Part shown: positions 5,540 through 40,834 of the stretch, in pieces
Layout: every line of letters starts with the position of its first letter
Numbering within the stretch: position 1 is the stretch's first letter
NCBI GenBank assembly: GCA_949297775.1
Contig: CASFTM010000005.1
Span: 26,605 to 90,604, forward strand
Length of the DNA stretch: 64,000 nucleotides
Reading direction: 5' to 3'
Origin: an uncultured bacterium
GTDB taxonomy: Bacteria; Elusimicrobiota; Elusimicrobia; Elusimicrobiales; Elusimicrobiaceae
Notes under the pieces: generated by a model
What the model was told of the DNA's origin: nothing
What the model saw: the letters and a program-made list of their open reading frames with translations, nothing else
The model's database searches: none
Translations under genes and position numbers: made by a program

Positions 5540-5573
5540 AGCCAAAATTTATCAAAAAAAAAAAACGAGTCAA
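5519..5573 (-). promoter_or_regulatory. Pilin start-site element copy 2 (-35 TTGACT, T12, -10 TAAATT, IR)
   Basis: Arms 5519-5534 and 5543-5558, spacer GTCATAGC, A12 at 5554-5565. Confidence 0.8.
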
Positions 5574-5614
5574 GGCCCTTCAGCCAAGACCCGTTTTCAA
5601 ATAAAAAGACAGCC

Positions 5615-14173: not shown

Positions 14174-14207
14174 ACGCAAAATTTATCAAAAAAAAAAAAC
14201 AAATCAA
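14153..14207 (-). promoter_or_regulatory. Pilin start-site element copy 3
   Basis: Arms 14153-14168 and 14177-14192, spacer CTCATACG, A12 at 14188-14199, TTGATT at 14202-14207. Confidence 0.8.
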
Positions 14208-14309
14208 CCCCCTTGCCGGGGGCAGGCTTTTTGGCCCCGGCCAAGGGGGTTGCCTAATACGGTACTTACGCTATTAGGGAACAACTGGTTGAGGATGTTC
14301 CTGCAAGGG

Positions 14310-37473: not shown

Positions 37474-37507
37474 AGCCAAAATTTATCAAAAAAAAAAAAC
37501 AAATCAA
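37453..37507 (-). promoter_or_regulatory. Pilin start-site element copy 4
   Basis: Arms 37453-37468 and 37477-37492, spacer GTCATAGC, A12 at 37488-37499. Confidence 0.8.
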
Positions 37508-37819
37508 GGGGCGAGCCGCCCCTCCCCTCTTTTTACCCGTCAACACGATTAGCTTAGGCCACACTGCTCCTGCAATGTTGCACTGTTTCAAAAAGGAAGT
37601 TTTTCCGCTTGTATTTATGTCGTAGCCGTGGTTGTTGCCGTTTATCCGCCCCTTTAGAGCCGTCTACAAAAAGCCTTTCAAACGGATTAGAAATTTTATT
37701 GTTTGAGCGCGGGGACCGCGTGAGTTATAAAATTTCCCGTTTGAAAGTGATTTTTGTGGCTCCCTGGGGCGGCGCTCTTTTTCGCCCTTTTTCTGGCGTC
37801 AGAAAAAGGGCTATATAAT
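37508..37819. repeat. Pilin-upstream mosaic repeat (most complete copy)
   Basis: Contains modules also seen at about 2.0, 14.3-14.6 and 21.3 kb. Confidence 0.8.
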
Positions 37820-39933: not shown

Positions 39934-39971
39934 TGGTTATATTTTACTATTTCCCCATAACGAAAAGGACA

Positions 39972-40199
39972 CTAAAATAAATCACGCTCTTTTACGCCCA
40001 GCCCTTTTGCTATTTTGCGTATGTTAAGCAACGCCAAATTGCGTTCCCCACGCTCTACTCCTCCCATATACGTCCGGTCCAGCCCGATTTCCAAGGCAAA
40101 ATCCTCCTGGGAAAACCCCGCCTGCCGGCGCAGTGCCCGCACTCGCGCGCCAAACGCCTTTAAATACTTTTTGTCCGCCTGCGAATAATTGTTTTTCAT
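39972..40199 (-). CDS. XRE-family HTH protein resembling R-M controller (C) proteins
   Basis: FGARVRALR...SQEDFA...[18 protein letters not shown] pattern; 75 aa. Confidence 0.85.
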
Positions 40200-40222
40200 A
40201 CTTCAAGGATAGCTGTATGATA

Positions 40223-40247
40223 TCTATAAGTACACGGACTATAAGTA
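40223..40247 (-). promoter_or_regulatory. C-box-type double operator
   Basis: Minus strand TACTTATAGTCC-GTG-TACTTATAGA matches the GACT-TAT-AGTC/GTG C-box architecture, just upstream of the HTH gene. Confidence 0.75.
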
Positions 40248-40293
40248 TCTTTTTTTTGTTATAATAAAGCTACATTTAATATGCGGAGGTTTT

Positions 40294-40776
40294 ATGCAAA
40301 AAGGTTTTACGCTGATAGAATTATTAGTGGTTGTGCTGATTATCGGCATATTGGCGGCGGTCGCTCTGCCGCAGTATCAGCTGGCGGTGGACAAAAGCCG
40401 CCTGGCGGGAGCAATTTCGTTGGCGCAGTCTTTGCGCAAAGCGCAGGAAATTTATTATATGTCCAATAACGCTTACAGTGTGGATTTGGAAAATTTTGAT
40501 ATTGATTTATCTAAATCCTGCCGCCGTTCCGCCCCGGGAATGATTAATTGCCACCACTATATTGTTGACAACATCTACGGCGACCTAAATACTTCCGAAG
40601 AAGTCAACCAAGTGGCTATTTTCTATGTGCCTTCCAACCCCGGACAGACCGCCCAAAAAGACGCCCTTATCCATGTGTATCTGGAACATTCTTCCCTCCC
40701 CAACGAAATTACCTGCGAGGGCTTTACCGACCGCGGCAAAAAATTGTGCCGTGCTTCGGGCTATACAGTCATTTAA
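40294..40776 (+). CDS. Type IV pilin-like protein, short-leader class
   Basis: MQKG|[24 protein letters not shown]; GGAGG RBS; C-terminal CEGFTDRGKKLC. Confidence 0.9.
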   Translation: MQKGFTLIELLVVVLIIGILAAVALPQYQLAVDKSRLAGAISLAQSLRKAQEIYYMSNNAYSVDLENFDIDLSKSCRRSAPGMINCHHYIVDNIYGDLNTSEEVNQVAIFYVPSNPGQTAQKDALIHVYLEHSSLPNEITCEGFTDRGKKLCRASGYTVI

Positions 40777-40807: not shown

Positions 40808-40834
40808 AAAAGCCCCGGCCAAACCGGGGCTTTT
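40808..40834. terminator. Bidirectional intrinsic terminator
   Basis: AAAAGCCCCGG-ccaaa-CCGGGGCTTTT. Confidence 0.85.

Follow-up and report, generated by a model that had tools for sequence, protein, structure and literature searches.

A chromosomal AhdI-type controller gene and its double operator stand back to back with a pilin gene in Elusimicrobiaceae and may switch its expression

A controller gene and a pilin gene share one spacer in a core chromosome

Controller (C) proteins are treated in reviews as timing parts of mobile restriction systems (PMC12707154). Here, we analysed a 64-kb stretch of DNA (contig CASFTM010000005.1, positions 26,605 to 90,604; hereafter the window), part of the core chromosome of a chicken-gut Elusimicrobiaceae bacterium, in which the gene for a small C protein lies back to back with a prepilin-type gene, the two separated by a spacer that carries a double operator, the C-box. 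The core genes of the window include ribosomal protein genes, secY, mreB, rodA, PBP2, RNase G, an amidase gene and gcvT/H. Six prepilin-type genes are present as well, and no pil/gsp machinery genes occur among the Pfam families listed for the window. The named homologues of the C protein belong to Candidatus Avelusimicrobium (Elusimicrobiaceae), and DNA of the locus is present in metagenomes, most of the labelled ones being from chicken gut.

An earlier interpretation of the same DNA, made from its letters and open reading frames (ORFs) and called here the sequence-only reading, had described an orphan controller of a restriction-modification (R-M) system with no endonuclease (R) or methylase (M) gene beside it. 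The neighbours bear this out, since Pfam domains identify them as the prepilin gene, two Chromate_transp genes (chrA) downstream of C, an amidase gene and a YgjP-like gene, the first gene past the pilin being a convergent N-acetylmuramoyl-L-alanine amidase gene. No methylase or nuclease domain adjoins C, and none is among the Pfam families listed for the window.

A protein search for C returned >100 clusters at 69-96% identity, and a one-genome-per-species scan yielded 28 Elusimicrobiaceae loci and ~50 loci of other phyla. With three further loci from exact-protein look-ups, 31 Elusimicrobia genomes were compared; these species-level genomes span 57-96% protein identity and are thus not near-clonal. 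The features of the controller-pilin module, with O_L and O_R the two halves of the double operator and P_C the C promoter, are as follows.

39972..40199, minus strand: controller (C) protein gene, 75 aa, XRE/HTH_3 type, apparently leaderless
40206..40211, minus strand: -10-like hexamer TATCCT of P_C, at -12..-7 if transcription starts at the A of the ATG
40222..40232, minus strand: operator O_R, TACTTATAGAT, promoter-proximal, with a degenerate second half; centre 40227
40227..40253, minus strand: conserved non-coding block, consensus AAAATGATACTTATAGTCCGTGTACTTA; the window has A in place of the outer T
40229..40234, minus strand: weak -35-like hexamer TGTACT of P_C, within O_R and the central spacer
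40233..40236, minus strand: central C-box spacer CGTG, with the conserved GT
40237..40247, minus strand: operator O_L, TACTTATAGTC, near-palindromic; centre 40242; invariant in 30 of 31 genomes
40250..40257, plus strand: T8 tract between O_L and the pilin -10, setting the O_L-to-TATAAT spacing at 12 nt
40257..40265, plus strand: pilin promoter, extended -10 TGTTATAAT (TGnTATAAT); predicted start ~40272
40285..40289, plus strand: Shine-Dalgarno sequence GGAGG of the pilin gene; the CCTCC block is kept on the C strand in relatives
40294..40776, plus strand: prepilin-type gene, 160 aa, leader MQKG/FTLIELL (slash, cleavage point), with a C-terminal Cys pair

The protein and its operators are of the AhdI type

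The product of the C gene matches HTH_3 (E=2.7e-12), and its best match in the PDB is C.AhdI (1y7y, E=3e-16, residues 13-75), with C.BclI (E=1.5e-11) and C.Esp1396I (E=1.2e-9) as the next solved relatives and near end-to-end alignment. In C.Esp1396I, R35, T36 and R46 read bases, while Y37 and N47 bend the DNA (PMC3351150). The direct read-out residues R35/T36/R46 correspond to R42/T43/R53 in the protein studied here, and the bend or phosphate residues Y37/N47/R43/R17 to Y44/N54/R50/R24. An alignment of 23 homologues shows no variation at R42, T43, Y44, R50, R53 or R24 and almost none at N54. By sequence, the protein is a member of the AhdI/BclI/Esp1396I controller family that keeps all base-reading residues, as the description of it as a C-like XRE protein had anticipated.

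The C-box lies upstream of C, intact, and is followed by TATCCT 6 nt before the ATG, both as originally described. The double box TACTTATAGTC-CGTG-TACTTATAGAT (40222-40247) occurs once in the window, against an expectation from shuffled sequences of 0.04 matches with up to 3 mismatches. The centres of O_L and O_R are 15 bp apart, the same distance as in AhdI (PMC1885659), and the central GT is part of the C-box consensus (PMC3351150). O_L is presumably the high-affinity site, and O_R, judged from its degenerate second half, is the weaker one; across relatives the first half of O_R (TACTTA) is invariant and the second half variable. Protein and site together have the sequence features of the C.AhdI/C.PvuII operator class ('motif 2', Sorokin et al. 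2009), and the adjacent R and/or M gene that links a controller to an R-M system is lacking here.

Selection has acted on both the gene and the box. The C gene is under purifying selection (median dN/dS, the nonsynonymous-to-synonymous rate ratio, 0.09) and its synonymous sites are saturated (pS 0.74), in contrast to the 28-nt C-box block, which is essentially invariant across the 31 Elusimicrobia spacers (1.89 bits per column versus 0.74 in the rest of the spacer). Single-nucleotide polymorphisms (SNPs) between strains in four metagenome runs fall nearly all at third codon positions, and none lies in the C-box.

No Shine-Dalgarno sequence precedes the C start codon (ATG at 40199). A TAnnnT hexamer at -12..-7 of C is kept in the 31 genomes, and in nearly all of them the C ATG lies 44-45 nt from the box anchor. 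If transcription starts at the A of this ATG, O_L is centred at -43 and O_R at -28 of P_C; this start and that of the pilin gene are predictions under sigma-70-like promoter rules. A consensus promoter scan misses both the C and the pilin promoter because neither has a good -35, and this result carries no weight either way. Taking protein and site together, we regard it as highly probable that C binds this box and regulates its own gene.

Single O_L-like sites with at most one mismatch are absent elsewhere in the window, and a scan of 284 kb of related loci (348 kb in total with the 64-kb window) found one only, in L032, where it overlaps the -10 of the divergent gene. For searches of Elusimicrobiaceae genomes we give the operator pattern TGATACTYATAGTC. 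A hypothetical symmetric operator, GATACTTATAGTATC, was rejected as a search sequence: its 120 metagenome matches, none near a pilin or C gene, look like chance 15-mers.

The pilin promoter is held at a fixed distance from the operator

The divergent gene encodes a protein with a type IV prepilin N-terminus (N_methyl, E=1.9e-8; TIGR02532, IV_pilin_GFxxxE, above cutoff), in which a class III signal peptide with G/F-x-x-x-E leads into a hydrophobic helix. Only its N-terminal 60-70 residues match the GspG, PpdD, PilA and ComGC models, all below cutoffs. Among relatives, the divergent pilins share a mean pairwise identity of 37%, versus 78% for C.

The sequence-only reading had placed the operator over the -35 and spacer region of a TGtTATAAT promoter for this pilin, and the comparison supports that geometry: a TATAAT lies 10-12 nt from O_L in 27/31 genomes, preceded by TG in 24, with a spacing of 12 nt in the window and 11 in most relatives. 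On the pilin strand, O_L is thus centred at ~-30 of the predicted pilin start (-29 in most relatives) and O_R at ~-45. The predicted C and pilin starts are ~73 bp apart and share the 35-bp double operator. From this architecture we infer that C controls the pilin promoter.

The T8 tract that had been pointed out in the pilin spacer is present (40250-40257), but it is not conserved, and most species carry CATTTTATGC there with no homopolymer. Tract length also varies at close range: the window has T8, and both L010, the closest species genome, and the strain of metagenome run X4 have T7, a difference that shifts the operator-to-promoter spacing by 1 bp. The pilin 5' untranslated region shows no significant structure (z = -0.63), and an Rfam search gave no match above noise.

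The pilin leader itself is remodelled in some relatives. Members of the Ca. Avelusimicrobium stercoris group carry an insert in the pilin frame directly behind MKGF (L017:4569-4898; also L001-L003, L011, L015 and L022), made up of 1-3 copies of a ~65-110-nt hairpin-containing repeat that encodes peptides such as DPLLSKKKNDRFPTTTLGNDD and GHPELVSGS. The frame usually stays open, giving a 50-115-aa leader before G/FTLIELL. The pilins of L014 and L020 have 23-aa leaders that resemble remnants of such an insert (RHAELVSASS).

The two-gene unit is kept through relocation and inversion

In the window, RNase G and amidase genes read toward the pilin gene, which reads toward them; C, on the other side of the spacer, is followed in its own direction by two chrA genes and a hypothetical gene, and the YgjP-like gene faces these. 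In a clade of five genomes (L016, L020, L021, L025 and L028), the amidase gene faces C, and the pilin gene, across the spacer, reads into the same chrA, chrA and hypothetical genes ahead of the opposed YgjP-like gene; this order is what results when only the two-gene unit (pilin, spacer and C) is inverted in place between amidase and chrA. The pair lies beside gcv genes in L014 and L018 and in unrelated surroundings in L004, L030 and L036. Most relatives have the divergent pilin, in no fewer than four gene contexts, and at all 10 loci where chrA does not follow C its frame is open. The order pilin, C-box, C has therefore been kept through relocation and in-place inversion.

An R-M gene adjoins C in 0/31 of the related genomes. 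A locus from which an R-M system had recently been deleted would have spoken against the sequence-only reading; the absence of R-M genes here from all the relatives, together with the retention of the unit through relocation and inversion, argues against such a deletion. The sole methylase seen near the related loci is in L004, 3.8 kb from the pilin-C pair and with its own helix-turn-helix gene. There, on a 1.2-Mb contig (L004:9802-12125), a 63-aa HTH_3 gene lies directly upstream of a gene for a 703-aa protein in which an EcoRI-type adenine methylase is fused to a C5 cytosine methylase.

The same observations bear on whether the locus is a functionless, decaying remnant of a recently lost R-M system. 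The nearest relatives of C outside the clade do sit in R-M or mobile-element loci; set against this are a C gene that is unbroken in 31 species-level genomes, its dN/dS of ~0.09 and the saturation of its synonymous sites, an invariant operator, the monophyly of the Elusimicrobia C proteins, neighbours that are core genes (rodA, RNase G, amidase, gcv), and the lack of an R-M gene at the locus in any relative examined, near-clonality being ruled out by the 57-96% protein identity. We consider the remnant scarcely credible.

The inversion found in the clade of five raised the question of an invertible element, a mechanism we discarded: no substantial inverted repeats flank the 920-bp module in the window, leaving no visible site-specific means of inversion. 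A 219-nt contig of metagenome run X4 (depth 2.2) joins the start of chrA straight to the end of the amidase gene (39933/40854) and skips exactly the 920-bp pilin-C module. The shorter side of this junction is only 34 nt, which makes it weak evidence, and it faintly suggests that a strain or relative lacking the module co-occurs.

Related controllers in other phyla point to an R-M ancestry

Relatives with 53-69% identity occur in Planctomycetota, Legionellales/Coxiellaceae, Chloroflexota and other groups. These share the O_L TGATACTyATAGTCCGTr, with a more degenerate O_R, and the layout TATCCT-N6-ATG is frequent among them too. Their C genes have methylases, members of a nuclease family, AAA ATPases and integrases among their neighbours. 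In five such loci, C is followed by a 284-293-aa ORF without a Pfam family and then by a convergent N6_N4 methylase gene, and in one viral contig C, a 405-aa ORF and a convergent methylase with an SPPY motif stand behind the same box.

At ~10 Planctomycetota loci (L037, L039, L042, L055, L056, L066 and others), a C homologue and the same O_L lie beside a conserved convergent pair consisting of a ~104-aa ORF and a ~495-aa AAA ATPase, with no recognisable R-M pair there. These pairs may represent another non-R-M or defence module under C-type control.

In a neighbour-joining tree (58 columns, no bootstrap), 30 Elusimicrobia C proteins form one clade. The simplest history would have an AhdI-type control region captured once, its R and M genes lost, and the remainder passed on vertically.

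The module resembles known controller systems and differs from each of them

The closest match is the AhdI control region, in which the C mRNA is leaderless, the -10 is TGTAAT, the -35 TGGACT lies inside O_R, and the operators are centred at -44/-29, O_L being required for activation and O_R for repression (PMC2275141). The locus described here shares with P_ahdICR the GACT-TAT-AGTC/GT/repeat operator, the 15-bp centre spacing and, by prediction, the leaderless layout; a weak -35 again lies inside O_R (TGTACT here, TGGACT in AhdI), and the operators are placed at -43/-28 rather than -44/-29. AhdI itself is a type II R-M system of Aeromonas hydrophila, whose C gene is co-transcribed with the endonuclease gene and whose methylase operon is convergent, whereas here neither an R nor an M gene is present, a divergent pilin gene lies upstream, and the unit is chromosomal and common to the whole clade.

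For repression of a second promoter by a C protein, C.Esp1396I, which controls both the R and the M promoter, provides a precedent. Its base-reading residues R35/T36/R46 and the TG...GTC contacts are kept here. Its M target has a separate single operator, unlike the one double operator between two back-to-back promoters at this locus. Divergent and overlapping C and M promoters are known from PvuII and Kpn2I, where C binding shifts the balance by excluding RNA polymerase (PMC12707154). The predicted arrangement here is alike in that C and its neighbour diverge from overlapping promoters, and differs in that the divergent gene is of the prepilin type and not a protective methylase gene.

C-family members outside R-M systems have been listed by Sorokin et al. 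(PMC2632904). Among these, the well-studied exception to the R-M role, QseC of ICEMlSymR7A (Mesorhizobium japonicum), is R-M-unlinked and leaderless, has O_L/O_R between divergent overlapping promoters, activates itself and represses the divergent gene, and thereby forms a heritable two-state switch (PMC8789080). The locus described here is comparable in having an R-M-unlinked C-family protein and, as predicted, O_L/O_R between two divergent overlapping promoters. QseC/QseM is still on a mobile element, an integrative and conjugative element (ICE), uses operator motif 4, targets a conjugation anti-activator, and works only with a second C gene in tandem and an antisense promoter; here, by contrast, a single C gene of AhdI-type specificity (no second C gene was found adjoining it) lies in the core chromosome with a surface-structure gene as its putative target.

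Our literature search found no paper linking controller proteins to pilins or Elusimicrobia in the library that it covered. What would be new is the family-wide chromosomal fixation, the surface-structure gene in the methylase's place, and a mirror-symmetric double operator that appears to serve two promoters. A complete switch (protein, double operator and predicted leaderless promoter) would thus be fixed in the core chromosome across a bacterial family, a natural example of selfish-element circuitry turned to host regulation, and it suggests a route to heterogeneous pilin expression that needs neither slipped-strand repeats nor invertases.

A proposed switch between controller and pilin expression

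We propose, with moderate confidence, that an AhdI-type switch was domesticated once in this family and that it autoregulates and represses the divergent pilin promoter. The module (C gene, C-box and divergent pilin gene) would descend from the control region of an AhdI-type type II R-M system whose endonuclease and methylase genes were lost, and would now be resident in the chromosome of vertebrate-gut Elusimicrobiaceae. In the absence of C, the strong pilin promoter would fire while the weak C promoter stayed near silent, and the RNA polymerase footprints of the two promoters would overlap, so that the promoters compete. The first C dimer would take O_L and activate its own promoter, as C.AhdI does from -44. 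The same O_L-bound dimer would lie across the pilin -35 and spacer and shut that promoter, since polymerase should be kept off this promoter, which otherwise requires no activator, by a dimer covering ~21 bp around -30. With C abundant, O_R would be filled cooperatively by another dimer, capping C synthesis. The expected outcome would be two mutually exclusive states, pilin-ON/C-low and pilin-OFF/C-high: by default pilin would be on and C off, and C, once made, would lock itself on and turn pilin off. A circuit of this kind would turn one fast-evolving surface pilin on and off epigenetically, perhaps in a bistable manner. Its proposed logic agrees with what experiments have demonstrated for QseC/QseM (PMC8789080) and with accounts of divergent C and M promoters (PMC12707154).

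The sequence-only reading had proposed an R-M timing switch co-opted to control a pilin gene. The co-option has comparative support, and the timing role does not carry over as well, because a switch that has become chromosomal is better read as bistable or homeostatic.

The mirror geometry of the spacer also admits the opposite sign of control, in which a dimer at O_R activates the pilin gene. O_R is centred at -44/-45 of the pilin promoter (~-45 of its predicted start), and C.AhdI activates from -44; moreover, in L031 the -10 of the divergent gene has moved about one helical turn outward, which brings O_L near -40, a class II activator position. We nevertheless find activation improbable, since O_R is degenerate and weak and would be filled only after O_L, which sits at -30 inside the promoter, and since a near-consensus TGnTATAAT promoter should need no activator.

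Several considerations weigh against the proposed repression and its single origin. An extended -10 promoter needs no -35 contact, so repression from -30 is plausible rather than certain, and sigma-70-like promoter rules are assumed for Elusimicrobia. Both transcription starts remain predictions, because run searches for RNA evidence gave only DNA-type metagenome contigs, mostly from chicken gut; four metagenome runs yielded strain SNPs, T7/T8 variation and one low-depth deletion junction, and no transcript ends. Since the two promoters share one spacer and would be hard to separate by rearrangement, the joint travel of pilin and C is weaker evidence of coupling than it first looks. The globular domains of the pilins share a mean identity of only 37%, a divergence at which some of them could be replacements and not orthologues. 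As for descent, the support for the clade comes from a bootstrap-free tree of 58 columns, and the correlation between the identities of C and RNase G is weak (rho 0.23), a comparison limited by RNase G being 85-100% identical and the C protein short; with co-divergence this weak, vertical descent rests on monophyly and synteny.

The persistence of C where the pilin is gone belongs to the same list. The gene and its box are intact in L007, L008 and L035, where the pilin is frameshifted and decaying; a frameshift at CCAAAAGC (A4 where A5 keeps the frame) is shared and is accompanied by further decay (L007:5767-5910). Its occurrence in three diverged genomes shows this lesion to be old and fixed rather than produced by assembly. 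The pilin of L034 is also broken, and that of L031 and L032 has given way to a gene for a secreted protein or lipoprotein. With C and box persisting in five lineages that have a decayed or replaced pilin, the pilin cannot be the sole reason C is kept, and C, on this pattern, must have value beyond the neighbouring pilin.

Such cases are what one would expect if C were an autoregulated orphan selected for another function, either a regulon at distant sites or the exclusion of R-M systems with the same C-box, with the pilin only a neighbour. In the exclusion variant, resident C would trigger premature endonuclease expression by an incoming R-M system, and the pilin would share the spacer by historical accident. 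A cognate R-M system is known not to become established where C is already expressed, and cross-complementation occurs between related C proteins (PMC12707154); an identical O_L is found in mobile R-M loci of several phyla and of a viral contig. On the other side stand the pilin-strand TATAAT at its fixed 10-12 nt from O_L in 27/31 genomes, the open pilin frame at all 10 loci without chrA after C, the inversion of the pair as a unit, and the lack of any second O_L-like site in the 284 kb and the window bar the one in L032. We therefore consider an orphan of this kind unlikely and retain repression of the pilin by C as the preferred explanation.

Beyond repression as such, it is possible, though we hold it with considerable doubt, that the domesticated C is a bistable phase-variation switch that requires no DNA change, with pilin-off cells at high C and pilin-on cells at low C, each state inherited through the positive feedback of C; a side effect may be the poisoning of R-M elements with the same C-box. 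Since the parts are small (~300 bp and a 75-aa protein) and close to the characterised C.AhdI and C.Esp1396I, the prediction is directly testable in E. coli although the organism is uncultured.

The promoter of the divergent gene varies as well. The -10 of the L031 gene (2800-2940) lies about 10 bp further from O_L, no TATAAT stands at the usual offset in L032 (4880-4992) or L033 (1-172), and in L032 a third half-site, TACTTATAGTA, overlaps the -10 of the divergent gene. Such variants hint that a different gene can come under this operator, which might then act as an activator site.

Module boundaries, the chrA pair and the other pilin genes

Three features delimit the module and its downstream neighbour.

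39934..39971, minus strand: spacer from the C stop to chrA, left end of the module; 38 nt, no terminator detected, chrA -10-like element inside
39941-39949, minus strand: chrA -10-like element TAGTAAAAT, ending 7 nt before the chrA ATG
40808..40834, no strand assigned: GC-rich hairpin (inverted repeat I5, 11-nt arms, 100% complementary, A/T runs on both sides)

The hairpin sits between the pilin stop and the convergent amidase stop and is probably a bidirectional terminator that forms the right end of the module.

On the left side, C could be both regulator and first gene of a C-chrA-chrA operon, with the chromate transporters in the endonuclease's place. The chrA genes follow C on the same strand after a short spacer in the window and ~18 relatives, and no terminator was detected between them in the window. 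In the inverted clade, however, chrA lies downstream of pilin and not of C, other genomes have no chrA at the locus, and an element TAGTAmAAT is kept 6-8 nt before the chrA start in both module orientations (the window and 10 related loci). It follows from the last point that chrA is not driven by the C promoter, and an operon of this kind appears very improbable. By its promoter sequence, the chrA pair is outside the C/pilin circuit, in line with the original description of it as having its own -10. A version of the switch with two outputs, pilin and chrA, was dropped for the same reasons: the inverted context puts chrA beside pilin, and chrA has its own conserved -10.

The chrA pair is seemingly transcribed as a leaderless mRNA from this element. 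The -10 elements of C, chrA and the four further prepilin genes described below all lie only a few nt from the start codon, for which reason leaderless mRNAs may be common in the source organism.

These four other prepilin genes of the window share a near-identical upstream block, TTGAyTyG-T12-GATAAATTTTGGCTATG, found at 2003-2045, 5546-5590, 14180-14225 and 37480-37525; the genes end at 2002, 5545, 14179 and 37479, on the minus strand. The block can be read as a -35 TTGATT, a spacer that is mostly the T12 homopolymer, and a -10 TAAATT, with the ATG ~6 nt further on, a distance at which these genes look leaderless. The T12 tract in the promoter spacer is a candidate slipped-strand phase-variation device. 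The encoded pilins have a 15-17-aa leader, M(A)MxKIYQKxFPAxxNAG/FTLIELL, and the C-linked pilin differs from them in its short leader, its Shine-Dalgarno sequence and its extended -10.

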